A stretch of 64,000 nucleotides of DNA from an uncultured virus (IMG/VR IMGVR_UViG_3300030116_004105) (IMGVR_UViG_3300030116_004105:1-64000), one strand, 5' to 3'. Positions 3,237 through 21,878 are shown, numbered from the stretch's first letter. The notes: generated by a model from the letters alone, not told the origin. Program-made: numbers and translations.

Positions 3237-3242
3237 TGTATA

Positions 3243-3419: not shown

Positions 3420-3892
3420 CGCTTTTTAAATTTTAAATATGCTAACTCGTCTGTTTTTAATAAATTTATAAGTTTATCTTTATTTCCTTTAATACCTCTA
3501 GTAGCATCAAATCTATAAACTGATTTATTTTTTATTTTACATTTTCCTTTATTCCAATAAAATTTGCAATAAAAAGGATCTGTATGATAAACAAACCATT
3601 GTTCTCCTTTTCCTGTATCAGGGTTAAATACTTCTTTTCCTTCTGCTATTAATTCTTTTCTATATTTATTGCTTTCACCCCAATCTATTCTAGGATTACG
3701 CGGATCTCTATCGTGTCTGGTTATTGATATGGAAGATAGATTAAAGCCCATATTAAAATCTTTACCTTCCAAGATATAGTCCATAATTCCTATATTAAAC
3801 TCTGAACATATATCTCGAAATGTAAGATTATCTATTGAAGGATCAACTTCTTTAGAATAGGCTTTATATACATCTTTTAAAGTAAAAGACAT
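3416..3892 (-). CDS. crAss-like IHF/HU-related protein
   Basis: 158 aa with an IDWGES motif and YCKFYWNK; conserved position next to Ttub in crAss-like phages. Confidence 0.55.
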   Translation of the reverse strand: MSFTLKDVYKAYSKEVDPSIDNLTFRDICSEFNIGIMDYILEGKDFNMGFNLSSISITRHDRDPRNPRIDWGESNKYRKELIAEGKEVFNPDTGKGEQWFVYHTDPFYCKFYWNKGKCKIKNKSVYRFDATRGIKGNKDKLINLLKTDELAYLKFKKR

Positions 3893-4656
3893 TAGTACTT
3901 GTACCCTCCTCGTTTTCTGCGCTTTCTAAGAGCAGACTTCATGCTTTCTTTTCTATTTCCGTCTTTATCAAAATCTAAATAATCAGGTTTAACTCCACCA
4001 GATTTATATTTCATTTTCTTTAACCCACCAGAGCCCATTTTATTTCCTCCTCTAGGAATTTTATCAAACACACTCTTACTTGTAAGTCTTCTAGCTAGAT
4101 CTTGAGAAACACCACTGTTTCCAGTGTTTATTTTTTTAGGCTTACTAGAAGTAGTAGCTTTAGGTTTCTTTTTCTTTGCTAAATCCTCTTTTGTATTAGT
4201 AGAATACTTTTTACCTTTATACATAAATGTTTTACCAGGCCCTAACATTTTACGATTTTCTTTAAATGTTTCACCAAAAGATTTTTCTTTTGTTTGAATC
4301 TTTTTAGCACCAGGAGAATTAACTTTAGCTTTAGGCTTAGGTGCTTCTATTTTAGATCCAGGACTTTTTTTAGGTTTCATTTTTGACAAACCACTACTTG
4401 CATTAATTTTTGCAGTAGTACTTTTATTTCCTGCTGGAGTTGTAGAAGCTACTTTTTCTATTTGAGCTGCTTGAGCATCTGTTGTAGAAGTACCAGACTT
4501 CTTTTTATTTTTACCTGTAAGTTTATTTTTTACTTTTTTTACAAGTTTTTTAAGCCCACCTTTTTTATAGAGTTGACGTTCAGCCTCTAGGTGTAATGCA
4601 TCTAGATCATCATAAGATGGATCTAATAAAAAATCGTCAAAATTATTCTTTGCCAT
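3892..4656 (-). CDS. Lys-rich basic protein, possibly an internal virion or DNA-condensing protein
   Basis: 254 aa, very K-rich. Contains SFGETFKENRK...TFMYKGKKYST, a DxDxDG loop (DFDKDG) and several xxGG motifs. Confidence 0.6.
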   Translation of the reverse strand: MAKNNFDDFLLDPSYDDLDALHLEAERQLYKKGGLKKLVKKVKNKLTGKNKKKSGTSTTDAQAAQIEKVASTTPAGNKSTTAKINASSGLSKMKPKKSPGSKIEAPKPKAKVNSPGAKKIQTKEKSFGETFKENRKMLGPGKTFMYKGKKYSTNTKEDLAKKKKPKATTSSKPKKINTGNSGVSQDLARRLTSKSVFDKIPRGGNKMGSGGLKKMKYKSGGVKPDYLDFDKDGNRKESMKSALRKRRKRGGYKY

Positions 4657-4667
4657 TTTAATTTAAT

Positions 4668-5417
4668 TTATTGTTCGTTTTGTTGTTGTTGCCTAGGTCT
4701 TGATGCCCCACCGCTTTTCGATTGAGGATCTTGAGATCTATCATTTAAAGTATCGGAGAAAGTTCCAGACAACAAAGTCAACTCTCCGTTTGTTATTCCT
4801 TGATTAATTAAATTTACCATGTCTACAGGTATTGGATACGGATCTTTTGTAGGGTCATAACATTCAGTGTAATACTCTCCTGTTTCAGGATCTTGTTTTC
4901 CACATTGAGAAAATTTAGAAACTTCTTCAGGGTTTTCAAATACTCCCCTAATATTAATTGTATCTATACCATCAGAATTATGGATGTATAAATAATCTCC
5001 AATCATATAAGCTTTATATCTACCTTTAGTATAAGTATCATATGATAAAAATTGAAGTGTGTTTGGATTAATTAATGGTATAGTTTTAGTACCAGTAACA
5101 TCTCCAATATAAGTTAAAGCACTTTGAAAGTTAAGTCTTAAAGCTCTAGGAATAGGATTTACAGTTCTAAGGACTTTAGTTCCAACAGGTAGATTACAAC
5201 ATTTAGATCCATCTATAATCCGTAAATCTACGCATCCTAAATCTTGTTCTATATGATTTGAAATATACCCATTACGAGCAAAATCTCTCCTAATAAACAT
5301 TGCTCTGTAATGCCTAATGTTAAATTTAATTTGATCTAAAGATATATCTTCATCTTGATTAGACAAACCTCCTCTAATCAAATTTAATAAGTTATATGCT
5401 ATCTCATCTAATGTCAT
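4668..5417 (-). CDS. Head-tail connector/ring protein (crAss gene73-like)
   Basis: 249 aa. MTLDEIAYNL start, YLYI and GVFENPEEV-F motifs, YPIP C-terminal motif. Confidence 0.6.
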   Translation of the reverse strand: MTLDEIAYNLLNLIRGGLSNQDEDISLDQIKFNIRHYRAMFIRRDFARNGYISNHIEQDLGCVDLRIIDGSKCCNLPVGTKVLRTVNPIPRALRLNFQSALTYIGDVTGTKTIPLINPNTLQFLSYDTYTKGRYKAYMIGDYLYIHNSDGIDTINIRGVFENPEEVSKFSQCGKQDPETGEYYTECYDPTKDPYPIPVDMVNLINQGITNGELTLLSGTFSDTLNDRSQDPQSKSGGASRPRQQQQNEQ

Positions 5418-5803
5418 TATTTTTTTCTAATTTTTTCTATAGATCTTCCTGCAAAGTAAGCTCCATAAACAGTTATCAATAAAGTTTGATATATTGGTAT
5501 ATAGGCTGGAGCTATTTCAAATCCTCCAGCATTTCCATCAAAAATTGAAATAATAACAAACATTGCTGTTAAAAATATACATATTAATGGACGTATATTT
5601 TTGCTAAGCCAATTATCAGATTTCATATCAGCTTCCCAACGCCTAGTAACTTGTTCCTGAGCATCTGCTTCAGCTTGCATAAGAACTTCTTTCATAGCTT
5701 GCTTAGCAGCTAATCTTTCTTCTTCAGTAGTAGTTAAATTATCTATTACTCCTCCTACCTTTTCTATTACGTTTCCGCCTAATATTTTTAATAGTTTACT
5801 CAT
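5417..5803 (-). CDS. Holin (GTA 3TM-holin-like)
   Basis: RWEADMKSDNWLSKNIRP followed by hydrophobic helices and YFAGRSIEK; adjacent to the endolysin. Confidence 0.75.
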   Translation of the reverse strand: MSKLLKILGGNVIEKVGGVIDNLTTTEEERLAAKQAMKEVLMQAEADAQEQVTRRWEADMKSDNWLSKNIRPLICIFLTAMFVIISIFDGNAGGFEIAPAYIPIYQTLLITVYGAYFAGRSIEKIRKK

Positions 5804-6270
5804 TATAATATAATTATGTCTGGAGCATATCTATATCTAGTATCTCCATCCTTATCTTTATAAGCTTCTAATACTTCTTTTCTATTGTCTTTCTTTTTAA
5901 GAGATATATGTATCCATGCAAAATCAAACTCATTAATCATTTGATCAAATTCTAATCCTGATTGTAAAACCCAGTCATATATTTCTTTATTAGACATTTG
6001 GCCTTCTTTCCAAAATTGTAAATCCAAAGCTTCACCTTTACAGTGCTGCGACTTAGAGCTGCCACCAATAGCACGATTGAGTTCCGGGTTGCGATAACCA
6101 CTACTAATCCTGATAGGACCAAGATGGTCGCGCATAGGTTGTATAAGGTTTGTAATAATCCTTTGGATACCTTCCATATGTTTTTTCGTTGGCTCATTAC
6201 TTATGCCTAATCTTTTTGCTGTATTGCTTCGAGTAATCTCGGATAATACAAAATTTTTACTTAATCTCAT
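5803..6270 (-). CDS. Endolysin, peptidase M15A family
   Basis: SSGYRNPELNRAIGGSSKSQHCKGEALD and WIHIS Zn-ligand motifs. Confidence 0.9.
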   Translation of the reverse strand: MRLSKNFVLSEITRSNTAKRLGISNEPTKKHMEGIQRIITNLIQPMRDHLGPIRISSGYRNPELNRAIGGSSKSQHCKGEALDLQFWKEGQMSNKEIYDWVLQSGLEFDQMINEFDFAWIHISLKKKDNRKEVLEAYKDKDGDTRYRYAPDIIIL

Positions 6271-6288
6271 AATTTTTAATTAAAAATT

Positions 6289-6624
6289 TTAAAATGCTTC
6301 CATTACAATTTCATCTATAGAATTCTGTACTTCTTTTTTAGTAGCTTCCATAGTCATCATAATATTTGCTTGAAATCTTTTTACCTCTTCGTTATTATTA
6401 AATATTACAATAGTAGGTACAACTACTATTTTATATTCACTTGCCCATCTAGAGTCAGATGTTATATCCACTCTTTCTGTTTCACAGTCTGATAACTTTG
6501 GTAACCATTCTACCTGGTTAGCTGCATTAAAACTAGCATTAAACTCAACAGCAACCATTCCATCAGGAAAGTCTTGAGCCATAGCGCCAGTATAAATACA
6601 AAATAAAACAAATAGTTTTTTCAT
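6289..6624 (-). CDS. Exported thioredoxin-fold protein lacking CXXC
   Basis: Signal peptide MKKLFVLFCIYTGAMA|QD. VEFNASFN replaces the usual VDFxAxWCxxC; YKIVVVPTIVIFNNNEEVKRF matches the Trx cis-Pro strand. Confidence 0.7.
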   Translation of the reverse strand: MKKLFVLFCIYTGAMAQDFPDGMVAVEFNASFNAANQVEWLPKLSDCETERVDITSDSRWASEYKIVVVPTIVIFNNNEEVKRFQANIMMTMEATKKEVQNSIDEIVMEAF

Positions 6625-6630
6625 AAGATA

Positions 6631-6915
6631 TTATTTTAAGTCATCTATCTTTTCTTCAAGACGTAGCATATGTCCTTTAATTTCTTTTACATCATCTTGA
6701 GTTGTCATAATAGTTTGACGGATTAATTGATCTTTCATATCATACTCCATGCGGGTAATCTCAGGATCAGGAGGCAGAGGTAATTTTTTAGCCTCTGCTA
6801 TATCTGCTTGCAGTACAAACCATCCACTAATGGCTGCAGCCATTAATACTGCTATACCTGCTAAAGTTTTTAAACTTATATTAAAAGATGTTTCTTCGCT
6901 TAATTCTTTTGCCAT
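6631..6915 (-). CDS. Single-pass membrane protein with a Pro-rich linker and C-terminal coiled coil
   Basis: TM segment LAGIAVLMAAAISGWFVL, then KLPLPPDPE, then heptad-like DVKEIKGHMLRLEEKIDDLK. Confidence 0.65.
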   Translation of the reverse strand: MAKELSEETSFNISLKTLAGIAVLMAAAISGWFVLQADIAEAKKLPLPPDPEITRMEYDMKDQLIRQTIMTTQDDVKEIKGHMLRLEEKIDDLK

Positions 6916-6917
6916 TT

Positions 6918-8018
6918 TTAAAATATTACATAGTTAAGACCAACGCTAAAGTTGTGCCATTGTCTGTTCCAATACTTATTGTATCTACCTTCTATAAATA
7001 CACCTAAGCTTTTATTAAATCTATATCCATATATTAGTCCTGCTGAATAATCTAACCATTGTTTACCCTTGTAATTATAATAAGAGTATTCATTACCTGT
7101 GTCTACATGGTAAGGCATAAGATTACCCCAGCTGTGAAACCAGAAATCTTTTGTAAAATGATAATAATCAAATCCTAATACTGCAGAGTATTCTACTATA
7201 TTAGATATAGAATTTCTTTGATCTTCTACATAGTCATCTATTACTTGAGGTATAACAACCTCTTCCCACACTTCTTGACTAGTTGCTACTACCTCTCCAT
7301 TGGGTGCTGAATACTGTCCATCTAATGTTATAGTGTATCCCTCTTGAAGTGCCAAGTATGTATAATGTAAAGTCCCATTGTCCAGCACCCAGTCTGCTAA
7401 AGGGTCAAAACCGTATGGTTCTGCAAGCCTTTGAACAGCTCCTAAGTTAAAAGATAATTTACCTGTTTCTCCTATTTGCAATCTAAACCTTTCAGACGCT
7501 TCAAAATATTTTATATCTGCAAATCCGTCTTCTAAGTACTCTACTTTACTTACCCATTTGTCAGCAACGTATCTTACAAAATGATGTTGGTTTGTAAAGT
7601 TAACACCTAAACGGCGTACAAAATCAGCTTCGAATAAATACTCAAAGCCATCGACTCTACCAATTGTGGCTGCATCACTGTATGAATTTTCTGTACCATT
7701 ATAAAAGGTAAGAGCTCTATTTTCATATCCAAATCTTTTTATTTTTCTTATACCTATAGATAATGTGTAATCAAAAGGTGTTTGTACTGTTTGCTCTTCT
7801 AATGTTCCAGAAGTAATAGACCATATTTGATCATCACCTAATGATGTCCCACCATTGACAGCAGCATAAAACGTAGAATATTTAAATATTTTATGTAATC
7901 CTTGAGCATTACAAGAAGGAGCTGCTATAGTAAAAAATATTAAATAAAATAAAACTAGTACTATCCAAAATGATAAGTACGCAACGTCAGGTGTAAAAAA
8001 TTCTTTTAATCTTTTCAT
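6918..8018 (-). CDS. Putative outer-membrane beta-barrel protein
   Basis: N-terminal hydrophobic signal ending CNA|QG, aromatic-rich alternating beta strands, and C-terminal NFSVGLNYVIF (BAM-type terminal Phe). Confidence 0.65.
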   Translation of the reverse strand: MKRLKEFFTPDVAYLSFWIVLVLFYLIFFTIAAPSCNAQGLHKIFKYSTFYAAVNGGTSLGDDQIWSITSGTLEEQTVQTPFDYTLSIGIRKIKRFGYENRALTFYNGTENSYSDAATIGRVDGFEYLFEADFVRRLGVNFTNQHHFVRYVADKWVSKVEYLEDGFADIKYFEASERFRLQIGETGKLSFNLGAVQRLAEPYGFDPLADWVLDNGTLHYTYLALQEGYTITLDGQYSAPNGEVVATSQEVWEEVVIPQVIDDYVEDQRNSISNIVEYSAVLGFDYYHFTKDFWFHSWGNLMPYHVDTGNEYSYYNYKGKQWLDYSAGLIYGYRFNKSLGVFIEGRYNKYWNRQWHNFSVGLNYVIF

Positions 8019-10489
8019 TTCTTTAATACTTTTCTTGTGCTAATGTTACCATTATATGTTACGCTAAAATTATATATACCTGCTGGTAATAAACTTACAT
8101 CTAATTGATTTAATCCTTTATGCGTTTGATTTTCTTTAACTCGTATTACAAGCTTACCTGATATATCATACACTTCTATACCTACAGGACCATTTGTTAA
8201 TATGTTTAACACATCTCCCATAGGGTTAGGATACATAACTACATTATGTCCTCTAAGTAAATCTCTTGTATCTAATGGACTATCCCAAGAACAACTCCAA
8301 TATATTTGTTCACATTTATCATCCCACTCATTATTACAACAATAAGGATCTATCATAATTACCCAAGCGTAACATGTATCATTTAACCAATACGGCACAC
8401 CAGGGCCACCAACACATCCTGCATCATATAAACAACTTCCATCATCTGTATTATATACTGCATCGTAGTTATGAGCTAAAGGATCCATACAACCTTCTAG
8501 CACATCTATACATCCACCATTGTCTGTATTAGCTAATGGATCGTAATTAAATGCTGTATCATCTGTACAACCATATACCACATCTATACAAGAAAAATCT
8601 TCTGTATTTGCATCCGGATTGTAATTAAAAGCATTAGGATCTGTACATCCTGGTGTTACTGGAATACAAGATCCATTATCGGTGTTAGCAACAGGGTCAT
8701 AATTAAATGCAATAGTATCAGTACAACCAAATATAAAAGGTATACAGTTATCGCTTGCCGTGTTTGCTTCTTCATTATAATTATACATTGTAGGATCCAT
8801 GCATCCTATTATAACGGGGATGCAACTACCGTCATTGACATTAGCGTCTACTTCAAAATTAAATGCTTCTGGATCAGTACACCCTGGAACGGGGTATATA
8901 CAATTATCATTATTTACGTTTGCTGTACTATCGTAGTTAAGAGCTAACTCATCAGTACAACCAAAATATAAACAAGACTCATCGGCAGTATTTGCTTCAG
9001 GGTTATAGTTCCATGCTGAATTATCCATACAACCAACTACTACAGCTACACAAGAACTATCGTCTACATTAGCAAGCGAGTTATAATTAAATGCGAAGGG
9101 TGAGGTACAACCTTCTACTATCTCAATACAAGAACCATCGTCTGTGTTTGCGTTAGAGTTGTAGTTTAAAGCTTGTTCATCCAAACACCCATATACTTTA
9201 GGTATACAATAGTCTCCACAGAATGGAAGCGCATCGTATATATGCCAGAATGGTGGTTTGTAAGCTTTAAGTGCTCCTTGTCCATTATTAGAAAATGGAA
9301 ACACACCACCTTGCAAAGTTACATCACCATTTGAGTTTATAAGTTTAAAAGAATTATGCATAGTCTGAAACGCAACTTCTGCAGGAGGAGTTTGCGGACT
9401 AGCTATTTCAAAGTAGTATACCTTGACAGGCTTATCTGTTTCTAGTGTTATACCAAACTCTTGTGAGTAAGGCCCAGGACCCATTGTGTATGTACCAAGT
9501 ATACTGTCTTCTTGTACAACACCTATATAACAATCACCCCAGCCGTCGCCACCGTCATCTTCTATGATAAGAGTGTAATTACATGTAGGCACTATTTCAT
9601 TTAATGTAGCTTGTGGATTAAAGTTAAATGCGTTAGGATTTATACATCCCAATGTGTGTAATGTCTCACAAGACCCATCATCAAAATTAGCTTGAGGATT
9701 AAATTCTATATATGTATTATTAGTACATCCTTCTATTATAGGTAAGTCACATTGTTGTAGCCATATAGGGCCTGAATATGCAGCATTACCAAACCCTGGA
9801 TCTTCTAATGCCCATAAGGTATCTAAACTACCACAAGGCTCTGCATCACCAAGCATAATAAAATCTCCATCTGTACCACCAAATAAAGATCCTTCTAAAC
9901 CATCACCGTATGTATCACTTAATATAAGCTCTACACCTGTTTCAGGCACGCACAAATCATATATAATAGTTTGATTTGCTTGCTCATAGGAATACTCGCC
10001 AGCTACTACATTGTCTACAGGTTGCCCTGTTGTTATATCTGTTAGTATCCATCCTGTTTCACCAGGATATTGATCTAGTGTAAGCTTAAGTATCATTTTA
10101 GCCTCACCATCAGAACAGCTTATACCAATGCAGCTGTCATTATCAACTTCAGCCCAAGGATTGAAATTAGGAGCTTCTGGATTAGTACATCCAAATACAG
10201 GATAATTGCATGAGCCGTCATTAAAATTAGCTTCAGGCACATAGTTTAACGCTAACATATCTGTACATCCTGGTACAGTATCTATAGGTAGTGGGCAGTC
10301 TTCTGCATCATACCCAAACTCCTCACAGTTAAAGTCTATTACGTTTCCGCCCCATGTGTAGGAACCGTCATCGCAAAACCCATCGCCTAGCCAAGAAATA
10401 GGTGCTTCTGTTCCAGAGCAGTCTAAGATAGTATCTTGAGCATTTACTGTTAGCGTTAATAATAATAAAATATTTATTAGTCTTAACAT
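8015..10489 (-). CDS. Secreted Cys-rich repeat protein with a T9SS (Por) type-A C-terminal sorting domain
   Basis: Signal peptide MLRLINILLLLTLTVNA|QD. LNR-like WLGDGFCDD...NCEEFGYDAEDC, 14 GCTD-x-A-NY-x-A-x-DDGSC repeats, and C-terminal MYPNP...IEVYDISGKLV...LDVSLLPAGIYNF...TRKVLKK. Confidence 0.85.
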   Translation of the reverse strand: MLRLINILLLLTLTVNAQDTILDCSGTEAPISWLGDGFCDDGSYTWGGNVIDFNCEEFGYDAEDCPLPIDTVPGCTDMLALNYVPEANFNDGSCNYPVFGCTNPEAPNFNPWAEVDNDSCIGISCSDGEAKMILKLTLDQYPGETGWILTDITTGQPVDNVVAGEYSYEQANQTIIYDLCVPETGVELILSDTYGDGLEGSLFGGTDGDFIMLGDAEPCGSLDTLWALEDPGFGNAAYSGPIWLQQCDLPIIEGCTNNTYIEFNPQANFDDGSCETLHTLGCINPNAFNFNPQATLNEIVPTCNYTLIIEDDGGDGWGDCYIGVVQEDSILGTYTMGPGPYSQEFGITLETDKPVKVYYFEIASPQTPPAEVAFQTMHNSFKLINSNGDVTLQGGVFPFSNNGQGALKAYKPPFWHIYDALPFCGDYCIPKVYGCLDEQALNYNSNANTDDGSCIEIVEGCTSPFAFNYNSLANVDDSSCVAVVVGCMDNSAWNYNPEANTADESCLYFGCTDELALNYDSTANVNNDNCIYPVPGCTDPEAFNFEVDANVNDGSCIPVIIGCMDPTMYNYNEEANTASDNCIPFIFGCTDTIAFNYDPVANTDNGSCIPVTPGCTDPNAFNYNPDANTEDFSCIDVVYGCTDDTAFNYDPLANTDNGGCIDVLEGCMDPLAHNYDAVYNTDDGSCLYDAGCVGGPGVPYWLNDTCYAWVIMIDPYCCNNEWDDKCEQIYWSCSWDSPLDTRDLLRGHNVVMYPNPMGDVLNILTNGPVGIEVYDISGKLVIRVKENQTHKGLNQLDVSLLPAGIYNFSVTYNGNISTRKVLKK
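8432..9190 (-). repeat. Ten tandem ~26-aa (~78-bp) GC[TM]DxxAxNYNxxANxDDGSC coding repeats
   Basis: Counted in the translation from GCLDEQ to AVYNTDDGSC; boundaries approximate. Confidence 0.85.
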
Positions 10490-10794
10490 TACTTTTTCTT
10501 TTTTGTTTTGTTTCTAGATTTTCTTATAGCTTCTTTACCTCTTTTAAAAATAGATGCAACCTGTGTTTTGCCCATTACCTTAGCTCTTTGTTCTCCTACA
10601 GTTAGTATTTGAATTTTACGAGCGTATGGTTTACTAATACGTTTTACTTTTGCTACAGTAGCCCTAGCATCTGCAGGTGTAGCAAACTTAATTCTAACTG
10701 TATCTTTTGGGTTCTCATCTGTATACAATCTTCTTCCTGAACCTTTGGGTTTTTTACCAGTTCCCTTTTTAGGATCTCTACTTTTTCTTGGCAC
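10489..10794 (-). CDS. Small basic conserved phage protein
   Basis: Likely GTG start at 10794 overlapping the upstream gene end; PKKGTGKKPKGSGRRLYTDENPKDTV motif. Confidence 0.65.
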   Translation of the reverse strand: MPRKSRDPKKGTGKKPKGSGRRLYTDENPKDTVRIKFATPADARATVAKVKRISKPYARKIQILTVGEQRAKVMGKTQVASIFKRGKEAIRKSRNKTKKKK

Positions 10795-11059
10795 GTCTTG
10801 TTGTTTTAGTTTTTCTTTTTCTAATTGCAGAAGTTCTCCTGCCCATACCAACGCGCTTCTTCTCAGCTACTACTGCAGCTTTACGTTTACCAAGGCCTTT
10901 CCATGTAACAGGAGTTTTAGAAGACACACGCTTAGAAGGCCGACACTTCTTTGTGTTTTTATTCTTACGAGAACCACATGGATTGCCTTTCTCATCTTTC
11001 CATTTCTCTTTGAACCATCTTTTTAAGTTGAGGCCCGCTTGTGTTTTTCTAACTGCCAT
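10778..11059 (-). CDS. Small basic protein (DUF5872-like)
   Basis: LKRWFKEKW...CG...CRPSKRVSSKTPVT motif; very K/R-rich. Confidence 0.6.
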   Translation of the reverse strand: MAVRKTQAGLNLKRWFKEKWKDEKGNPCGSRKNKNTKKCRPSKRVSSKTPVTWKGLGKRKAAVVAEKKRVGMGRRTSAIRKRKTKTTRRAKKK

Positions 11060-11061
11060 AT

Positions 11062-11379
11062 CTATTTCTTTTTACCTGCTTTACGTTTTCTACATTTAGC
11101 TATTGCGCCAGACGCGTATGCGCTAGGGAATACTCTATATCTAGCTTTCACTGAATGATAACAAGCATCCTTTACAGTCCCGCCTTTTTTATACTTCTTT
11201 ACAGCAGTAGTTTTAGCTTTAGATTTTGCTTTAGGTTTAGCTTTAGTTTTAGCCTTAGCCTTAGGTTTTGGTTTAGTATGACCATAGCCTTTAGCTTTCA
11301 AAGCTAAATGTTCTTTCATAGTTTTAGCTACAACTACTTTGCTGCCTTTATACATTTTATGTTTTTTAAAAGCTGCCAT
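11062..11379 (-). CDS. Small basic protein (DUF5872-like) with a KAK/KPK repeat
   Basis: DACYHSVKARYRVFPSAYASGAIAKCRK; histone-H1-like KPKAKAKTKAKPK tract. Confidence 0.6.
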   Translation of the reverse strand: MAAFKKHKMYKGSKVVVAKTMKEHLALKAKGYGHTKPKPKAKAKTKAKPKAKSKAKTTAVKKYKKGGTVKDACYHSVKARYRVFPSAYASGAIAKCRKRKAGKKK

Positions 11380-11381
11380 AT

Positions 11382-11597
11382 CTATTTATCTTTAGCAAAT
11401 TTTTCAACGCCTGATATACCAAAGCAACCAAGGACTACCCATACAAATGAATTATATACATACTCATTTATAACTAAGTCTTGGCCTACCCAGCCAGTTA
11501 CGAGATCAGCTATCATAATTAGACACATAACTGCAAAGGCTATAAATCCTACGACAGCTTTCTCGTTCCAGGCGTTATCGTTTTTAAATATCTCCAT
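11382..11597 (-). CDS. Small two-TM membrane protein
   Basis: Two hydrophobic helices; ends GISGVEKFAKDK. Confidence 0.6.
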   Translation of the reverse strand: MEIFKNDNAWNEKAVVGFIAFAVMCLIMIADLVTGWVGQDLVINEYVYNSFVWVVLGCFGISGVEKFAKDK

Positions 11598-12665: not shown

Positions 12666-15600
12666 TTAACATGATTCACAATATTCAGCATTACACATAT
12701 CTGTAAGCTTTTGAATATACATATCTATTTTAGTTTGGTTATTTTCTATAACCGCTTGTTTATATCCATCATAAAGAGCATATATCTTTAAAGCTCTTTC
12801 TGCTTCTTTTGTGTCACAATCTGTTAAAGACAGTGAGAATAAAGAATTTTTAACACACTGCTCAAATCCAGCATCAAAACAATTACCATCATCCATCGCT
12901 GCATGTGAATTGTAATTAGCTGCAGTAGGGTCCGTACAACCATAAACAACAGGTCTAATAGTTATTGTATCAAATGTATGTGAAGAGTTTTTATAAGTTT
13001 TATTTATAATCATTTCTCCATACTCAGATTTTAACTGATACTTATAATCAAATTTTGACGTATTCTTAAATCTTACACCAATTCTTGTTTCTTTACTTAT
13101 AGGAAAACTATTAATATAAGACTGACCCATGACATATTCTTCTGTATCAGAAGTTCTAAATAATGTTTTACCTGTATCTAAATTATAGATTTCAGCTATA
13201 AACAATTGATCAGAAGGTATTGTGGTTGATACTTCAAATGTAAATTGAATATCAGTAAATTCTTTAACATCTTTTTTAACATTTGTTATACAATAATCTG
13301 TTAATATTCTACCATTAACTGCACTCTCACATCCTAATTTACAAGAACTATTATATGATAAAAGCTGTGTTCCTGAAGTAATCTCAGGATTAACTATATT
13401 TGCTCCATAGCTTAGAATTGATATAGGTGAAGAGTTTTTATTTATTAATAAAACTATATTTTTCCACTCATCTTCTGATTTAAATCCTATAGGAACAAAA
13501 TATAAACAAGAGCTTTCTGGAAGAGGAGATGAAAAATATCCATTTTGTTGGAAAGTACCTGGATATAATCCAAAGTTTGCTTGAAGAACCTCTCCATAAG
13601 AATTATATAAAACCCATTTTAATTTAGTAGGATCAGAAGGGAAACCAATTAATTCTATATCATCAGTAAAAGATCCCTCAATATACGTACATGTTCCATT
13701 ATCAACTGTAGCAAGCGGATTATAATTACTAGCTAATTGATCTGTACAACCATAAACGGCACCTGTTATAAAATTTGTAAAGTCTATTGAAAACTCATAT
13801 GGATGCCCTGTAACAGGATTTAGTCTAGGTATAACTTCATACATATGATACACATCAGTAGAAAATGGTGGAACAGGATTATTTTGCGCATCTACCTCAT
13901 TAGGATTTGTTACCGGAGATATACTTGTATTAATACCTTTTTGAAGATTACCTATACCATCTATTGTATTATTAAATAATGGGTCTGGTATATACTCTGA
14001 ACCATCAGCTGCTTTTATAGATAATATCTTATCCTCATGCTGACTAAATATTTGTTGTATAGAGTAAGTATTTAAATTTAACCCTGCATGTAATCTAAAA
14101 TAATATCTAACTGAATATATGTTAGGATCACCTGGTTCAAAACTTGGAACATCTGCATATGAAGGATCATAAACAAGAGGTTCTCCAGCACCTAAAGCTT
14201 CTTGTCCTGGAGAGTCAGGTGTGTATCCATATATTATTTCTCCATTTTGAGCTGGGTTTGTTATTTGAAGTATAGGACTTCCAATAGCTCCTGGTGCTGA
14301 TACTATAACTTGACATTTAAAAGTATAAAAAGGTTGGTCATAGTAAAGATTTGCACCGTAAAACTCATTGTATTGTAAGAAACGATCTGGGTTTTGATTA
14401 ATGAATTGTAGATTTGCAAACTGAGTTCCAATAAAATAGTTACCTTCTACATAAGTACTAGGTCCTGTAGTGTCTATACCTATAGCATCTAACTCAGTAA
14501 GTAAAGAAGCGTATAAACAATTACCATCGTCTTCGGTTGCTTCTGAATCAAAGTTTACAGCAGTTGAGTCTGTACACCCAAAACAAGCATTATACTCAAG
14601 ACCTTCAGGCAACCAACAAACACCACAATCATCAAGCTCAGGTTGTTGGCCTGTAATATAACATAAACCATCACAACCTAATGATTGACCCTCACAGCAG
14701 TCTCCATTTGCTAAAGATCCTCCTACTCTTACTCCGCCTAAAGTACAATCATCACATTCATTTAAAGCATATTCATATTCCCATTCAGAACCATTCCATT
14801 CAGCACAATTACCTTCACAATCTGTTTGACTAGGGTGTCCTACTGGATTACCATCTGGATAAGTATAATCCGCAGGTCTACAACCACCAGTACCAAAAGC
14901 ACATGAGTCCCAAACATAACCTTGACAACATCTGTTGTTCTCGTTAGTCTGATTAAAAAATGAGACAAGAGGTTGCGGTGTGTCATCACATTCACATTTA
15001 TATAAAGTACTGTTTCCATCTATTACTTGATAGAATCCTTCTGCTGCACTTTCATAATCTATAAAAGTAGTTGGATAAGTTCCACATTCGCTACAATCGT
15101 TTGGTGTGAATGCAGCTACTATATTTTGCCACTGCTGAGCATTTAATTGTTGTGTTGGTTGTATACCATACGGAGAACCAGCCTCAGCACATGGATTACA
15201 AGAAGTTATAAAAGATTCTGAAGAAGAACCGCCGCCTCCCCAAGTTACAGTATATTCATTAGGTCCAGTTAAAAATACAGAAACAAAACCATCATCAGGA
15301 ACATCTCCTTCGCTTTCAAACATAGTTGCTATACAACTATTACATTGATCAACTAAACCAGCAGCAAGATCAGTTTCAAATATACCTGTTACACCCTCAC
15401 AACATGGAAGTTCAGCTTCTGATGGAGGAACACAGCTACCACATTCATTTAATACTCCACTTCCATAATAATCATTAGAGTATATGTTTCCTGGCGCAGT
15501 ACCTGGAGGTACAAAGGGTAGCAACGCAGCAATAGACTCATTGCTCCACACTTTCCATTTACATTCTCCATTACAATCATATTGTTGTCCTTCTGCAGCA

Positions 15601-18600
15601 TCCTCTGCAGTAATACCTGTAGTTTCACCTATTTGTAAAAGTATACCCTCATCAGTTGCACACTCGTCACATTGGTTATAATTAACTGCAGTTCCAAGAT
15701 CGCCTGATAGTATATATTCTGATTCAAGATCTTCAGGACTAATAACAATACCATTTCTTATATCGTAGTAAGCACCTACATTTGGTGCTAATGCATTAGG
15801 GTGAAACACAAGCATTTCCTGAGTTATTTCACAAATATATCTTCTAGGTATATCACAAGCAGGGATACCATTACCATCTACATCTTCATAGTAAAGAGTA
15901 GCTGCTGTATTACAGTCACAAAATACTTGATCAGCTATAAAAGAACCTCCACCAGCATCAAGCTCTCCGTCACAATTACAATTTGGTCCAAATAGCTCGC
16001 TAGCAAGCGCTCCATTACAGTTACAAATACTTGAGTTACTAAATTGTTCCGGCTCTACTACAACACCGTTCTCACAATAACATCCGTATTCTGCTCCAGT
16101 AGCAACAGTACCTTCACAATCACAATACTCTCCTTGTTCTTGTCCTTGACTATTAAAATATGGTACAGGATTGTTATCACAATCACAAGTAGGTTTTTTT
16201 AGAAATATAAAATCAGGATCATTAGGATTTGATGGGTCGTCTGCCCCACAACTACCACAATACATTGAACCATATAAAGAGCCGCTAAATACAGGATCCC
16301 CTCCAAGGTATTGATTACAAGTACATACAATACCTAAGTCTATCATTGTATCAGGATAATACGGATCAGGATACACGTCAGTAGGAGAATAAGTACAACC
16401 TGTCTGTACTGTCATTTGAGGATCTAAAGCAGGATTATAATTACATGCATCTGGGTCTGTACATCCATACTCTCCACACAAATCAGAATTAGAAGTCACC
16501 CACTGATAGTAAGTTTCTTCATCTCCTGAGGTATATCCACCACCATTTTGATCATAAAATGGAGCATCTTCTTCTAAACAATGCTGACAATATGTAGGAT
16601 CAAAGTCACTTACTGGTTCAAAATTAGATGGATTCTCCCCTACATGTATACACCAATCATTTATAATAGGCTCTCCAGTTTCAGGATCTACTGGTTGAAT
16701 AGGCTCTCCAGGATATGTATCTATATATGTCCATTGCCCATCACCATTTTCCTGAGTTGTAATAGGTATAAACACCCATGTACCAGATACAGTAATTAGG
16801 TTACAGCCAGCACCATCTTCTTCTATGCCTACAGGGCCTGCCCAAGGACCAGCTATTATTGTATCTGTTTCTGCCTCATATGTAACTGCTATTTCAACTA
16901 TATAAGTTGCTTGACAGCCGCAGTTTATATTATTAAAACAAGTAACATTAAATGCTGATAGAAAATTTGTATAATCATTACTTCTTGCCGTCGCTAAAAA
17001 AGATGAAACTAAATCTGATCTACCACCACCCTGACATGTAAATAATGCATTTTCAAACTCAGCATCTAAATACTCAACCACCTCAGCAAAGTTAGGTATA
17101 TTATAAGAACTTGCAGAACCCCAACCATAACCTAAATCTGGACATTCTGCATCAGTACAACCATCGGTATCAAGAGATGCTAAATTAGTTAAATCAATAT
17201 TAGAATTAGTATCAAGATCTTGAGAATAAACACAACTACCATCATTTACAGTAGCATTAACATTGTAATTAATTGCTGCTATATCCATGCATCCAAATTG
17301 GATTGCCCCTAAATTAGTAATTTCCTCAAAAACCTCATCGTAATCTTCCTCATCTATTTTAGTCCCTGATGTACTAGCTGGAGATATTGGGGTAATCCCT
17401 ACAGAACCATAAAAGTTAGCAAGAAACCCTCCAGGATCTCTTGTAACTCCTAGTACTTGATTTAATGTAACAACTCTTGCATTTTTATGTAACCTTGCAG
17501 CTAGAGTGTTTTCAGAAGCCGTAATAACTCCTGTCATTTGAATTATAGGCTCATCTTCAATTTGTTGAGGATGAGTAAGAGATACAAAAATATTATTATC
17601 AGGACTTCTATACAGACCTGTCATTGTAGAGTTAGCTCTATATACTAGATTTCCTTGGTAAGAATTTCCATCACTATCAAATGTAAATAAATCTGAATAT
17701 AATGAAAGAGCGCCTTGTGATGAGTATGACTCAGATTCTTGAACAGGCCCATCTAATCGGAATGCTGAAGGTTCTGAAATATTTGTTTTATCAATATCTA
17801 TTCTTATTAATCTTGAAGATGCATGTCCATCATTAAGAGTACCAAAACTATCTTGAGAAAATACATCTTCAGTTTGACGATGCTGCCCTATTAATACATA
17901 AAGTTTTTGATTATTAGGAGAAAACTCCATACCTCTTACTATAGCGTCCACCATAATAGAGCTAGGATCATTAGGACTTATACCTTCTTTTCGTAAAAAG
18001 TCATTAGTGGTTAATTTAATTGTAGAACCAATTTTATCTCCTAAAAGTAACGGGTTGCGATTGTCACTGTCTTTATTAAAATTAAATAAACTTATTGTTA
18101 TTTCATTAAAGGTCTCTTCATGAAGAACAGAAGTTGCTATAGCTATATATAGACCGTTTCTAGAAACACGCATAGTAGTAAATATTTTACCATTATGAAC
18201 ATTATTAGCGATAACATCTGATATAGTATGAACAAATTGTTTATCACTCTGGTCACTCGCAAGAAAGCCCTGTGCGCTAGCTGACGATAAACTTCTTTTA
18301 TTTATAGATAAGTAATTTATATAAATGTCTGTAATTCTGTATTCATGTATAACCGAACCAGAACTAGACGTAGTCGTACTAGTATAAAATCCCTGTGTTG
18401 AAATAATTTTAAATGTATTTTCAGTCTCATATATTTCTATCCCAGGAATTATTTTATAAAAAGTGTTAAGTGCAGATCCACTAACTGCCGCACTTCTAAG
18501 TAATTCATATCTAGGTGATACAGAATATTCAGGATTATTAATAGAACCTGCTACACTAACAATTTTGTATGAATATAAAGGTGGATAAGTTCCATTTGTA

Positions 18601-21600
18601 TCAACCATGGAATGGTCATTCTTATTATAAAAACCAACAAAATACTCCTGATTACTAAGAGGTAATATAAAACTTGAATTTTGCGTATCAAGAGACTTAT
18701 AATACGTAAGTACAGGTGAATTTGTTCCTTCAGGTACATCATAAGAAAGAGAACTATCTAGCTCATTATCGTTTTTACCATATAATTTTAACTTATTACC
18801 CCAAGTAGCATATGTATATAAAACTACATCATTTGATGCTCCATTTGCAGTTTGTGTTGCATTAGATAAAGGAAGAAGAGCTGGATCATGTATATTTGGA
18901 ATTACTGTTTGAGATATACTATCATATGTAACACCAGCACCTATTATTTTAGAATTATAAAAATTATTAAGTATCGGTGCTACAAAAGCGCCAGCTGATT
19001 CTACTGGTATAGAAGAATTAAAAGCATCAATAGAAGAATATATAAACCTTCTATCATCTTCTGTATTTTGTACATCTGTGCCTTGAGCTGAAAATTCTAA
19101 TCTTGCTACGTCTAAAATAGAGTCTCTATAAAAAGACGAAGGTAAATAATCTGTAGTAACTTCAAATACTTCAGGATTGTCTACAAAGGCAGTTACACTG
19201 TCGTATAGATCTGGAGAAGAAATTTTATGAAATTGCCCACTATCAGACCAGATATAAATTGCACCATCTGATTGCAATGTTATTCTTTCAAGGCTACCAG
19301 CAAATACATTATCGACAACTTTTACAGTAGAAGTAACTGCGCTTTGACCGGCTGCCTCAACGCATCCAGTATTATTACCACCTGGGTGTATATTATATAT
19401 TGCAATTTTTCTATCCGTACTATCCTGAGGATTTTGTATTATAGTATATAGGTGAGTATCACTAGCTGAAAACTCCATAGCTATAGGACTCCACCCTCCA
19501 TTAAAGTTAGCCATATCAGGATCTCCTCCTGGTATATGGACTTCCAAACCTCCTTCAGTTCCTGGAGGTATAATAGAAAAATTAGTGTTATTTATTTTTG
19601 TTAATAGTATACCATGATTAACTGCTATTGCTAAATGAAAATCTCCAATATGGTTAAGATTATCAACTGTTTCTGTTAAGCTTAAATTATATGATTCAAG
19701 AAAACCTTGAGTATAACCAGGAAACTGTGGAATATAAATATTAGTAGCTTGGGCAGATACATGATTAGGGTTAGCAAAATAAGAATTATAAAAAAGTTTA
19801 TTTCCTATAGTAACAGGTAGTTCTCTATATCTATCTATGCTTAAATATCTACTTGCACCGCCTGTAAATTTATTAGATCCAGCACTCCAAGTATTTACAA
19901 CCGTATTCTCAAATTTAGATAATTGAAAACTAAATCCTGTAGAAAAAGGTCTTAATACTAAAAGTTTTCCATTTTGAGATGAAAACTGAGGAGATATATC
20001 CATAGGAGTATTTCTGGCGGATAAAGTATTACTATTATTCTCATCAACGTGTAAAAGAGCAGTATCATTTACTTCATTTCCTAAGTTATTTGCAATCGTA
20101 TCTTGGTCCATATAACCAACAATATCAGGGGCTTGAGAATCTCCAAAAACAGTGGCTAATTTTGGGTCTAGTGAGTTAGGCTCAAAATCATTGTAATTAA
20201 TTATATGCGTTAGGTTGTCAGCTGACATAAGTCTAAATAATCTAGCTATAGGAGCAAAGGGGTCTAAATTAATAGCTACCAAACCTGTGTAAGTAGGTAA
20301 CATAAAGTTTTTAAAACTTTTTATATTGACATCGTAATCATACTCAGCATCATCTTGTTGCAATACACTAGGAGATTCTGTCAAGCTACCTATTATATAA
20401 TGATCTAGCCGTCTTTGCATCATAAAGTAAGTTATTCCTGGGACACTTCCAGCAGGATTATAACCATCTCTAGCTCCTGATACTACATCTGTATTAACTA
20501 CTACTTTTCCATCATTACTAACACTTAGATAATCGCCACTAGTTTTATCTTTATAAGCAAAATTATATTGATGCATTTGAGCTGACTTCACATTCCCATA
20601 CATTAAAGTATCACTGTCGCAGTAAGGTACAGGAGTACCTTCTGGTGTAAATTGTTGTAAAGTATCATCTAATTCTATTTTTCTTAATTCTCCTTGAGAA
20701 CCAAACCAATATAAAAGATGCTTATTATTTGTATTTTGTATATAATGAATTTTAAAATTAGAGGTATGCAAATAATCTTCTACAGGTGAACCTAATAATG
20801 AATAATTAAAATCATTTATAAGATTGCTTGTTAATCCACTAAGCCTTGCTCCATGATGATTAAAAATATCTATATCTCCAGAGTTATTTGCTATAACATA
20901 GTATCTTATAATTCCTGTACTATCTCCATATTCAGACGCACCTTTATCTGTTATAACTAAACTAGTAAGTTGAGAATTGTTATCAGAAAAAGATGGAGAC
21001 AAAGTTAAAGGCTCGCTAGAGCTATTACTAATGGATGTAAGGGTGTTGTCAACATCTCCAAACACACCGCCCTGTATTGCATAGTAACCTTCAGGTTGTA
21101 ATAACACATACTCAGGATAGGGCTCATTTATATATCTAGCTCCTATTCTTGGCATCATTAAAGTTACGTTAGCTCTCGGGTCCTCGTATACACAGCCCCC
21201 ACCTTCAATAGTTGCCTCTGGATTATAGTTTGTTGCATTAGGATCTGTACATCCTAAAATATAAGGTCTTCTTCCTGTAGTAATTCCATATACATTTACT
21301 ATACCTTTTTTAATTACTGGGTAATCAACTAGTATACTTTTATTTATACTACCATCAGATTCAACTGTTAATTTTGACACAGAAGGATAAAAGGTAGATA
21401 AGAATTTAGTATTCATAGGGCTTACCTTTTGAGTTCTAGGCACCCGAAGCAGCAAACCTATATTATATACTAAGTAGTTTAATAATAAATATTTACCACT
21501 AGGCATTCCAGTAAAAGCCCAGTTCAACCCAGACTTTAATTGTATAGCTGGAGAACCATAAGTAATCTGAACTCTGCTAGTTATATTAGAAACACTAATA

Positions 21601-21878
21601 GTTATGTCGGAAGTAGTATCTGATTTTACAAAACTTAAAGCTATATACTCCCCATATAAAGAGTTGAATAAAAGCTCCCATTGTTTAAATGCATTTTGAA
21701 CTTCAACATCAAATGCATGTTTTGTTATGTATGTATTTGGTAAAACTTTTACATCTTTAAGTGTTGGATGGTCTACCAATAAATTATCAAAATTTTGAAT
21801 AGAATAATTTAAAACAACTGGAGCAACTTCATTAGAAGTTTTACCCTTATTTATTGCGTCTCTTAAAGTAGTTAACAT
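12666..21878 (-). CDS. Giant 3070-aa putative tail/virion-associated protein
   Basis: Degenerate matrixin-like N-terminus, beta-propeller-like MEFS repeats, a long Cys-rich region, six GCTD repeats and C-terminal CxxxxCxxC; no signal peptide. Confidence 0.7.
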   Translation of the reverse strand: MLTTLRDAINKGKTSNEVAPVVLNYSIQNFDNLLVDHPTLKDVKVLPNTYITKHAFDVEVQNAFKQWELLFNSLYGEYIALSFVKSDTTSDITISVSNITSRVQITYGSPAIQLKSGLNWAFTGMPSGKYLLLNYLVYNIGLLLRVPRTQKVSPMNTKFLSTFYPSVSKLTVESDGSINKSILVDYPVIKKGIVNVYGITTGRRPYILGCTDPNATNYNPEATIEGGGCVYEDPRANVTLMMPRIGARYINEPYPEYVLLQPEGYYAIQGGVFGDVDNTLTSISNSSSEPLTLSPSFSDNNSQLTSLVITDKGASEYGDSTGIIRYYVIANNSGDIDIFNHHGARLSGLTSNLINDFNYSLLGSPVEDYLHTSNFKIHYIQNTNNKHLLYWFGSQGELRKIELDDTLQQFTPEGTPVPYCDSDTLMYGNVKSAQMHQYNFAYKDKTSGDYLSVSNDGKVVVNTDVVSGARDGYNPAGSVPGITYFMMQRRLDHYIIGSLTESPSVLQQDDAEYDYDVNIKSFKNFMLPTYTGLVAINLDPFAPIARLFRLMSADNLTHIINYNDFEPNSLDPKLATVFGDSQAPDIVGYMDQDTIANNLGNEVNDTALLHVDENNSNTLSARNTPMDISPQFSSQNGKLLVLRPFSTGFSFQLSKFENTVVNTWSAGSNKFTGGASRYLSIDRYRELPVTIGNKLFYNSYFANPNHVSAQATNIYIPQFPGYTQGFLESYNLSLTETVDNLNHIGDFHLAIAVNHGILLTKINNTNFSIIPPGTEGGLEVHIPGGDPDMANFNGGWSPIAMEFSASDTHLYTIIQNPQDSTDRKIAIYNIHPGGNNTGCVEAAGQSAVTSTVKVVDNVFAGSLERITLQSDGAIYIWSDSGQFHKISSPDLYDSVTAFVDNPEVFEVTTDYLPSSFYRDSILDVARLEFSAQGTDVQNTEDDRRFIYSSIDAFNSSIPVESAGAFVAPILNNFYNSKIIGAGVTYDSISQTVIPNIHDPALLPLSNATQTANGASNDVVLYTYATWGNKLKLYGKNDNELDSSLSYDVPEGTNSPVLTYYKSLDTQNSSFILPLSNQEYFVGFYNKNDHSMVDTNGTYPPLYSYKIVSVAGSINNPEYSVSPRYELLRSAAVSGSALNTFYKIIPGIEIYETENTFKIISTQGFYTSTTTSSSGSVIHEYRITDIYINYLSINKRSLSSASAQGFLASDQSDKQFVHTISDVIANNVHNGKIFTTMRVSRNGLYIAIATSVLHEETFNEITISLFNFNKDSDNRNPLLLGDKIGSTIKLTTNDFLRKEGISPNDPSSIMVDAIVRGMEFSPNNQKLYVLIGQHRQTEDVFSQDSFGTLNDGHASSRLIRIDIDKTNISEPSAFRLDGPVQESESYSSQGALSLYSDLFTFDSDGNSYQGNLVYRANSTMTGLYRSPDNNIFVSLTHPQQIEDEPIIQMTGVITASENTLAARLHKNARVVTLNQVLGVTRDPGGFLANFYGSVGITPISPASTSGTKIDEEDYDEVFEEITNLGAIQFGCMDIAAINYNVNATVNDGSCVYSQDLDTNSNIDLTNLASLDTDGCTDAECPDLGYGWGSASSYNIPNFAEVVEYLDAEFENALFTCQGGGRSDLVSSFLATARSNDYTNFLSAFNVTCFNNINCGCQATYIVEIAVTYEAETDTIIAGPWAGPVGIEEDGAGCNLITVSGTWVFIPITTQENGDGQWTYIDTYPGEPIQPVDPETGEPIINDWCIHVGENPSNFEPVSDFDPTYCQHCLEEDAPFYDQNGGGYTSGDEETYYQWVTSNSDLCGEYGCTDPDACNYNPALDPQMTVQTGCTYSPTDVYPDPYYPDTMIDLGIVCTCNQYLGGDPVFSGSLYGSMYCGSCGADDPSNPNDPDFIFLKKPTCDCDNNPVPYFNSQGQEQGEYCDCEGTVATGAEYGCYCENGVVVEPEQFSNSSICNCNGALASELFGPNCNCDGELDAGGGSFIADQVFCDCNTAATLYYEDVDGNGIPACDIPRRYICEITQEMLVFHPNALAPNVGAYYDIRNGIVISPEDLESEYILSGDLGTAVNYNQCDECATDEGILLQIGETTGITAEDAAEGQQYDCNGECKWKVWSNESIAALLPFVPPGTAPGNIYSNDYYGSGVLNECGSCVPPSEAELPCCEGVTGIFETDLAAGLVDQCNSCIATMFESEGDVPDDGFVSVFLTGPNEYTVTWGGGGSSSESFITSCNPCAEAGSPYGIQPTQQLNAQQWQNIVAAFTPNDCSECGTYPTTFIDYESAAEGFYQVIDGNSTLYKCECDDTPQPLVSFFNQTNENNRCCQGYVWDSCAFGTGGCRPADYTYPDGNPVGHPSQTDCEGNCAEWNGSEWEYEYALNECDDCTLGGVRVGGSLANGDCCEGQSLGCDGLCYITGQQPELDDCGVCWLPEGLEYNACFGCTDSTAVNFDSEATEDDGNCLYASLLTELDAIGIDTTGPSTYVEGNYFIGTQFANLQFINQNPDRFLQYNEFYGANLYYDQPFYTFKCQVIVSAPGAIGSPILQITNPAQNGEIIYGYTPDSPGQEALGAGEPLVYDPSYADVPSFEPGDPNIYSVRYYFRLHAGLNLNTYSIQQIFSQHEDKILSIKAADGSEYIPDPLFNNTIDGIGNLQKGINTSISPVTNPNEVDAQNNPVPPFSTDVYHMYEVIPRLNPVTGHPYEFSIDFTNFITGAVYGCTDQLASNYNPLATVDNGTCTYIEGSFTDDIELIGFPSDPTKLKWVLYNSYGEVLQANFGLYPGTFQQNGYFSSPLPESSCLYFVPIGFKSEDEWKNIVLLINKNSSPISILSYGANIVNPEITSGTQLLSYNSSCKLGCESAVNGRILTDYCITNVKKDVKEFTDIQFTFEVSTTIPSDQLFIAEIYNLDTGKTLFRTSDTEEYVMGQSYINSFPISKETRIGVRFKNTSKFDYKYQLKSEYGEMIINKTYKNSSHTFDTITIRPVVYGCTDPTAANYNSHAAMDDGNCFDAGFEQCVKNSLFSLSLTDCDTKEAERALKIYALYDGYKQAVIENNQTKIDMYIQKLTDMCNAEYCESC

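Follow-up and report, generated by a model that had tools for sequence, protein, structure and literature searches.

We analysed the first 64 kb (64,000 nucleotides, called the window below) of a 95,981-bp viral record from IMG/VR, IMGVR_UViG_3300030116_004105, which is annotated as '100% complete'. This report concerns a cassette of six open reading frames (ORFs), all on the minus strand of the late block, between a giant protein of 3070 aa and the tail-ring genes. In gene order they encode a putative type A cargo protein of a type IX secretion system (T9SS; 824 aa, 8015..10489), a predicted outer-membrane beta-barrel (366 aa, 6918..8018), a predicted inner-membrane helical protein (94 aa, 6631..6915), a thioredoxin (Trx) relative without a CXXC motif (111 aa, 6289..6624), an M15 endolysin (155 aa, 5803..6270) and a holin (128 aa, 5417..5803). 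The next gene, for the crAss Ring-2 tail protein (4668..5417, minus strand; PF25702, 129.7 bits), forms the downstream edge of the cassette. From cargo to Ring 2 the successive spacings were -4, 2, 6, 18, -1 and -1 nt, and the cargo stop codon overlaps the barrel start codon (ATGA). A preliminary description of this DNA, made from the sequence alone, had reported four tightly coupled genes directly upstream of the endolysin and holin, and the ORFs, with one 4-nt overlap and gaps of 2 nt and 6 nt, bear this out. The barrel, the 94-aa protein and the Trx relative are referred to together as the trio.

Family profiles run on the window proteins found Crass_capsid (PF23898, 434 bits) at 34837-36288, other crAss-type families (PF24228, PF25702, PF25710 and PF25731; Ring 1, Ring 2, Ring 3/4 and muzzle), and a portal and a terminase. 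The major capsid protein was 33-34% identical to those of crAss-like phages of Bacteroides, Flavobacterium and Cellulophaga. By its capsid and its tail ring and muzzle genes, the source virus, an uncultured marine phage, is assigned to the crAss-like phages (Crassvirales). The host would be a member of the Bacteroidota, as this kinship and the Gln residue after the predicted signal peptides suggest; Gln at this position is the Q-rule of Bacteroidetes in the available part of the study that describes it (PMC5837995).

Proteins of the cassette

The C-terminus of the 824-aa protein (residues 752-824, nt 8018-8236) scored 45.8 bits against TIGR04183 (cut-off 23) and 47.3 bits against PF18962 (cut-off 27), which confirms the type A T9SS tail that the preliminary description had read there. 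Its signal peptide, as read from the sequence, covers residues 1-17 (nt 10439-10489; MLRLINILLLLTLTVNA followed by QD), is of the Sec (SPI) type and would be cut at VNA↓Q. The protein has 45 Cys residues and, by a regular-expression count, at least eight copies of a repeat of about 26 aa with the pattern C..A.NY..A..D.SC. All 29 cargo homologues tested were above the PF18962 cut-off (36.0-55.3 bits). The homologues that bear this C-terminal domain (CTD) are 670-1373 aa long, have 35-73 Cys and share 31-86% identity, and every one of them among the matches listed begins with a hydrophobic N-terminus followed by Gln. The cargo gene is the most variable of the cassette block. Judged by the sorting domain together with the Sec signal, the protein is a T9SS type A cargo, and it would be secreted by the T9SS of the host. 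We also considered that it might be a virion fibre and rejected this because all homologues retain the Sec signal peptide.

The giant protein on the other side of the cargo gene (3070 aa, 85 Cys; 12666..21878, minus strand) has no signal peptide and no family match in profile searches, and it carries at least four copies of the same C..A.NY..A..D.SC repeat. The common repeat points to domain exchange between a presumed virion-associated giant and a secreted cargo.

For the 366-aa protein, a signal peptide with a cut at CNA↓Q (38/39) is predicted, and the C-terminus reads ...NYVIF; Gln stood at +1 in all 24 barrel representatives. An AF2 model built with 24 relatives, of moderate confidence (pLDDT 66.5), had 12 strands and, at about 206-269, a helical insert. 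The top fold matches to the model were outer-membrane barrels without exception: VIA gave CymA (Z 12.4, rmsd 4.5, 217 aligned), OmpG (12.3) and NanC (11.4), and Foldseek gave NanC at E 2.3e-5. By its signal peptide, even strand number, C-terminal aromatic residue and the fold similarity of its model, the protein is a generic outer-membrane barrel, and the barrel that the preliminary description had proposed for 6918-8018 is upheld to this extent. No single barrel family was picked out by VIA or Foldseek, and PorV (6h3i_F, Z 9.7) ranked 22 among generic barrels. The sequence matched no Pfam, NCBIfam or PHROG family, and its profile found nothing meaningful among PDB sequences. The nearest named Atlas clusters (DUF6850, Phenol_MetA_deg, OMP_b-brl and Phage_OMP; 0.92-0.94, 131-145 shared features) are leads only, and this includes the cyanophage family Phage_OMP (PF24653; 0.92, 144 shared features), to which a sequence relation of the barrel was not shown. 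Neither the barrel nor 23 distant relatives had any PorP/SprF (TIGR03519) or Pfam similarity at E<=0.1, and when the barrel profile was compared with six PorP/SprF proteins by hhalign, only the signal-peptide region aligned (probability 70.7%, 74 columns). Two types of barrel N-terminus occurred among the 24 relatives, a short classical one (...GNA↓QG) and a long one ([ST]C[NKR]A↓QG). In the long type a Cys at -3, three residues ahead of the Gln, is conserved, and such peptides may undergo lipoprotein-type processing.

The 94-aa protein has one transmembrane (TM) helix at about residues 17-37 in a Kyte-Doolittle scan; a linker rich in Pro leads from it to a C-terminal part of about 55 aa, which is helical. 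An alignment of 17 sequences showed the invariant motif TRME.DMKD..IR.TI and a mean column identity of 80%. There was no PDB or family match except a weak one to phrog_736 (E 0.006). In its sequence the protein has the layout of an inner-membrane spanin subunit (i-spanin), an N-terminal TM helix with a predicted periplasmic coiled coil, at the short end of the size range.

The signal peptide of the 111-aa protein would be cut at AMA↓Q, as read from the sequence, and the +1 Gln is invariant in the alignment. The single sequence scored 22.7 bits against Pfam Thioredoxin, just under the cut-off of 23.5, and the family profile (22 relatives) matched 2vim_A in the PDB at E 1.3e-6, with 119 sequences at E<=1; the 60 matches listed were thioredoxin-type proteins throughout. 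By profile similarity, then, the protein is a member of the thioredoxin superfamily. It has no CXXC active site: FNA[SG][FW]N occupies the place of WCGPC, where five residues are deleted in the alignment, and the VPT loop with its cis-Pro is kept. This agrees with the CXXC-less thioredoxin of the preliminary description, and the three cut sites before Gln that it had noticed (VNA↓Q, CNA↓Q and AMA↓Q) are seen in the sequence, with the Gln kept across relatives. Export signals of all three kinds, Sec, outer-membrane barrel and T9SS type A, are thus present and conserved. In two Trx clusters, P0309 (217 aa) and P0310 (207 aa), read-through has fused the coiled-coil protein to Trx, and the Trx signal peptide is retained; two such clusters stand against thousands of separate genes, and they are weak evidence at most. 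Seven of nine longer Trx forms were set aside as probable miscalls, being singletons with unrelated Pfam domains on short contigs.

Of the two lysis genes, the endolysin matched PF08291 (Peptidase_M15_3, 64.8 bits) and phrog_894 (E 5.8e-34) and has no signal peptide, and the holin matched PF11351 (GTA_holin_3TM, 32.7 bits) and phrog_3427 (E 1.9e-27), with a TM helix at residues 70-88. None of the 65 genes scanned in the 96-kb record matched a PHROG spanin family. The record contained no same-strand ORF with a lipobox, as an outer-membrane spanin lipoprotein (o-spanin) would have, the outer-membrane member here being the barrel, and no ORF with the N-terminal lipobox and C-terminal TM helix of a unimolecular spanin. 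No other exported or TM protein was found in the late region. The earlier remark that no lipoprotein spanin is evident therefore stood up to both the PHROG and the lipobox ORF scan of the record.

Distribution and separable parts

At 90% identity the relatives of the barrel fell into 3622 clusters, not one of which carried a functional name or a Pfam family, and at 50% identity 396 representatives remained. The best 30 Atlas clusters were 100% viral. In 50,697 GenBank phage records, tblastn found no match for the barrel or its distant relatives P0172, P0255 and P0205; blastn with the whole cassette gave a single 164-nt match. The distant barrels P0138, P0171 and P0125, used as queries, found no IMG/VR locus. 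A scan of 185,579 species genomes for the barrel gave seven loci, all on contigs of metagenome-assembled genomes (MAGs) and none in an isolate genome. The MAGs were labelled Flavobacteriales, Sphingobacteriales, Parvibaculum, Winogradskyella, Nitrosopelagicus and Rickettsiales, and because these labels are mutually inconsistent, the seven are probably mis-binned phage contigs. Within the searches made, the trio is restricted to phage DNA.

For synteny, 158 loci were examined, which gave 99 distinct ones. The full trio was present in 92 of the 99, and a CTD-bearing cargo adjoined it in 81, that is, in all 81 testable loci. The other 11 trio loci comprised nine whose contig ends where the cargo would be expected, one with a cut cargo (L049), and L090, whose 745-aa Cys-repeat protein resembles the cargo but has no tail that could be detected. 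The gene order was cargo, barrel, coiled coil, Trx in 74 loci, barrel, coiled coil, Trx, cargo in five, and coiled coil, Trx, cargo, barrel in two (and in L090). Within this family the coiled-coil protein was 59-100% identical and the barrel 53-97%. An M15 endolysin and/or a phrog_3427 holin lay within 2 kb in 61 of the 89 loci with enough flank, so the tie to the lysis genes that the preliminary description had drawn is frequent but not universal. In L052, L067 and L059 a weak holin-like ORF (phrog_199, E ~1e-5) stands just downstream. In L034 the coiled-coil and Trx genes are separated by an inserted 100-aa ORF (9331-9633) that matches a PHROG 'lipoprotein' (phrog_26616, E 1.2e-6).

In distant relatives the set comes apart. 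In L188 and L189, where the barrel is about 34% identical, the coiled coil, Trx, barrel, M15 endolysin (phrog_894) and holin (phrog_3427) follow in tight order and no PF18962 protein is present. L189 is an HK97-type, non-crAss phage (Phage_portal, Mu F, S78 protease, head-tail adaptors, tail terminator), which means that the trio and the lysis genes co-occur on an unrelated backbone. In 17 further loci (L171-L187; barrel about 31% identical), there is no Trx and no cargo, and a 215-233-aa membrane protein is encoded directly upstream of the barrel. It has a cytoplasmic domain, a TM helix and a predicted two-segment periplasmic coiled coil of about 110 aa ending in GRF, and in its sequence it resembles an i-spanin. 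Because these two groups split the set, the conserved core is, as far as gene content tells, the barrel with a membrane-anchored coiled-coil protein, and Trx and cargo are lineage-specific additions. Since the distant relatives hold the trio or the pair without a cargo, we distinguish two separable parts, the trio and the T9SS cargo. The four-gene cassette of the preliminary description therefore recurs in every testable locus of the close family but is not indivisible.

The ends of the periplasmic proteins share a further feature. The Trx protein ends in ...EAF, SGF or NKF, with a terminal Phe in at least 90% of the alignment, and in the Trx-less loci L171, L175 and L187 it is the long coiled-coil protein that ends in ...GRF. 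An aromatic end of the periplasmic partner, which recalls the terminal Phe of barrels, may be a docking motif.

Assembly of the record

The stretch 5416-8747 recurs at 92719-95981, the end of the record, with 85.7% nt identity, and the repeat starts exactly at 5416. Between the two cassette copies, aa identity was 96% for the holin, 77% for the endolysin, 96% for Trx, 79% for the coiled-coil protein, 92% for the barrel and 92% for the cargo C-terminus, and the tail genes that follow each copy (Ring 2, Ring 1, muzzle) are merely 28-31% identical or barely alignable. The record contains one capsid, one portal, one terminase and one giant 4898-aa protein but two tail modules, the second in 82155-95981 (L084). 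Its final 78 nt equal 8670..8747 exactly, and the preceding 100-nt windows are 81-92% identical. Because an exact terminal match amid such windows indicates re-entry into a node already used, the record is probably a rho-shaped assembly, in which a loop of about 87.2 kb (8670-95903) would come from one phage and a spur (1-8669) from a second phage that occurred with it and has the cassette too. At about 8670 the 824-aa ORF may thus be a chimera of two phage variants; both encode the same architecture. In the public run X1, contig depth was 7.3-9.0 over 50-5457 and 17.9-26.8 over 9386-12000, and the cassette itself was covered by many small contigs with a summed depth of 30-170. Among related contigs the two tail types occur in separate contexts, the second type with the same upstream basic proteins in L006 and the first type in L016. 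A cassette common to many co-occurring strains can thus mislead assemblers, and the rho-shaped contig is a warning that a '100% complete' record may hold more than one genome.

The shared block begins at the holin stop codon and takes in everything up to and including the cargo C-terminus, so the lysis genes, trio and cargo recombine as one block. Independent public contigs (X1 record 4, 3961-5457; X4 record 30) span the holin/Ring-2 junction at 5416, which means that there is no host-DNA chimera at that edge, a possibility that the preliminary description had raised.

In the second copy only, a 387-aa exonuclease (phrog_704, E 3e-54; record 91560-92723, L084:13560-14723, minus strand) stands between holin and Ring 2, and by eye its N-terminus resembles a homing-endonuclease DNA-binding motif. 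A related exonuclease (phrog_284; L187:2986-4170) lies between the lysozyme and the coiled-coil/barrel pair of L187. Such a cassette-associated exonuclease may be a mobile element that promotes cassette exchange.

Directly upstream of the cargo, at 10489-12304 (minus strand), are genes for small, strongly basic Lys/Gly-rich proteins (93-120 aa; DUF5872, phrog_727), which recur in related loci and are candidates for packaged internal proteins; two of the ORFs, 10489-10851 and 10778-11059, overlap, so that one of the two starts is uncertain. Genes for RIIA-like (phrog_612, E 7.6e-67) and RIIB-like (phrog_609, E 6.7e-42) proteins lie in the early/replication block at 59447-62855 (plus strand). 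A sigma-70 promoter scan was at chance level (40 found, 40.3 expected), and every terminator-like site was intragenic.

A possible lysis role and its alternatives

Our leading reading, which we hold as possible rather than probable, is that the phage-only trio is an accessory to lysis, which would take over from the missing spanin and work like one without belonging to the spanin family. We lean to it because no spanin was found, because the trio covers three compartments, and because it travels with endolysin and holin and recombines with them as a block. A type II inner-membrane helical protein, a redox-dead periplasmic protein of Trx fold and a 12-strand outer-membrane barrel would together occupy all three envelope compartments, and the trio would assemble across the periplasm before the outer-membrane step. 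The holin would then free the M15 endolysin, the wall would be cut, and the trio would contribute to rupture of the outer membrane, as Rz/Rz1-type spanins do in other phages, except that a barrel would take the part of the lipoprotein. The cargo would be exported by Sec and then by the host T9SS through its type A sorting domain, and would be displayed on the infected cell or set free from it before lysis. Any role of the cargo in receptor masking or adhesion is a guess.

Two-component spanins such as lambda Rz/Rz1 are the nearest comparison. They too combine an outer-membrane protein with a small type II inner-membrane protein whose periplasmic domain is helical, and they too lie in the late operon, often beside endolysin and holin; in the present record there is no other candidate for the outer-membrane step. 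However, the outer-membrane member of the trio is a predicted 12-strand barrel and not a small lipoprotein, and a third periplasmic member of Trx fold is added. The trio genes also lie upstream of the endolysin and are neither embedded in nor overlapping one another, they have no PHROG spanin homology, and their linkage to lysis genes is not universal.

Several points weigh against a lysis role. We know of no spanin that is built on a beta-barrel or a thioredoxin fold. The periplasmic part of the 94-aa protein, at about 55 aa, is short for spanning the periplasm, the AF2 model of the Trx protein was poor (pLDDT 56.4, pTM 0.29), and that of the barrel reached only moderate confidence. A prediction of the complex of barrel (39-366), coiled coil (37-94) and Trx (17-111), with Trx as partner and without controls, gave ipSAE values of 0.02 and 0.00 against a mark of 0.32 and speaks neither for nor against such a complex. 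Neither an M15 endolysin nor a phrog_3427 holin lay within 2 kb in 28 of the 89 loci; in L027, L031 and L033 the trio runs directly into tail-ring genes, and among L171-L187 a lysis gene is nearby only in L187 (Phage_lysozyme, 1.2 kb upstream), while in L172 the barrel directly precedes the portal gene. The invariable cargo linkage in loci with barrels at least 53% identical is equally compatible with a role tied to the cargo. Finally, a 2025 survey states that Bacteroidetes phages use only unimolecular spanins (PMC12596118), from which it follows that a spanin substitute is not needed in principle; no gene of that kind was seen here.

A bolder version of the lysis-accessory reading seems to us more doubtful. 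In it the trio would be a new class of device for disrupting the outer membrane, a barrel-based complex of three parts that spans the envelope, takes the place of lipoprotein spanins in Bacteroidota phages and moves between unrelated backbones with M15 endolysin and holin. In marine crAss-like phages it would have acquired a Cys-rich surface protein, secreted through the T9SS and either displayed or set free shortly before the cell bursts.

In an unlikely but serious alternative, the four genes would together make up a single system for surface display, in which the barrel would be the outer-membrane anchor or shuttle of the cargo, Trx a holdase for the disulfide-rich cargo, and the membrane protein a tether. 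The b' domain of PDI is a holdase parallel for a CXXC-less Trx protein, and the CTD-bearing homologues are uniformly rich in Cys. The constant neighbourhood of cargo and trio, in several gene orders, and the ATGA overlap of cargo and barrel fit this arrangement, and a cargo that varies in length and identity beside a conserved trio is the typical pattern of payload and fixed machinery. PorP-like anchors are known for type B cargo from the available parts of two papers (PMC9143113, PMC12618676). Like PorP/SprF (Gorasia 2022, PMC9143113, as far as its available part goes), the present barrel falls in the range of ~300-370 aa and is encoded beside a T9SS cargo. However, it has no detectable homology to PorP/SprF by TIGR03519, Pfam or hhalign, it also occurs without a cargo (with the whole trio in L188 and L189, and with the coiled coil only in L171-L187), and the present cargo is of type A, whose tail works with the host PorV and not with a PorP-like partner according to the available part of PMC12618676.

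Still less likely, in our view, is surface remodelling for exclusion or progeny protection, in which barrel and cargo would mask or replace receptors so that neither later phages nor fresh progeny adsorb to the infected cell and its debris, much as phage envelope proteins of the T5 Llp or lambda Lom/Bor type do. The products appear, from their signals, to be addressed to the outer membrane and the cell surface. The cargo, with the Cys repeat that it shares with the 3070-aa protein, could bind what the virion binds, and it is the most variable gene of the block, as an arms race predicts; highly variable phage T9SS cargo is also described in Bellas 2020 (PMC7468147). Yet the genes sit in a late structural/lysis operon, the trio is conserved and not diversifying, its inner-membrane and periplasmic members would be left without a role, and the 3070-aa protein, a presumed virion component, has no family match. 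Exclusion genes are usually early or lysogenic.

That the cassette is an artefact, with host DNA or an assembly chimera placing bacterial envelope genes in a phage contig, is highly improbable: the two cassette copies, the 78-nt match of the record end to 8670-8747, the two tail modules and the depth shifts would suit it, but both joined partners are phages, each with its own complete cassette, the gene order is found again in at least 92 distinct viral-contig loci, public contigs span the junction at 5416, and the barrel has no relative in isolate genomes.

Phage-encoded proteins of the host envelope are familiar from lambda Lom and Bor and T5 Llp, which have exclusion or serum-resistance roles. 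They are alike in that a phage product is placed in the host outer membrane, but they are single genes and not trios beside lysis genes. The preliminary description knew of no described system of the present kind. For the cargo this did not hold, since Bellas 2020 (PMC7468147) reports phage-encoded T9SS type A cargo among the variable genes of 'Cryophage', and de Jonge 2019 (PMC6949934) reports ORFs with T9SS sorting domains in crAss-like cluster 2. The published cargo is alike in its type A sorting domain, its variability and the presumed hijack of host secretion. It consists there of glycoside hydrolases, PA14 or BACON proteins, whereas the present one is a Cys-repeat protein without a known domain and is fixed beside a conserved envelope trio and lysis genes. 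For the trio the statement stood, as full-text literature searches, supplements aside, found no description of a set of barrel, coiled coil and Trx. The idea of the cargo is thus already published and the trio is undescribed in the literature searched; new are a trio that accompanies lysis genes without a cargo in a phage outside the crAss group, a third lineage in which the core has two members, the negative result for PorP/SprF and the rho-shaped record.

The cargo is a large, conserved case of phage use of the host T9SS, and it bears on how the surface of the infected cell may change before the burst. The outer-membrane step of lysis by Bacteroidota phages is poorly understood and few spanins have been recognised. 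For an abundant group of ocean phages, the barrel family (3622 clusters) and its two partners offer a concrete candidate for this step. Should the trio prove to act in lysis, a barrel-based mechanism would be added to the short list of spanins and disruptins, and new tools to lyse Bacteroidota could follow.

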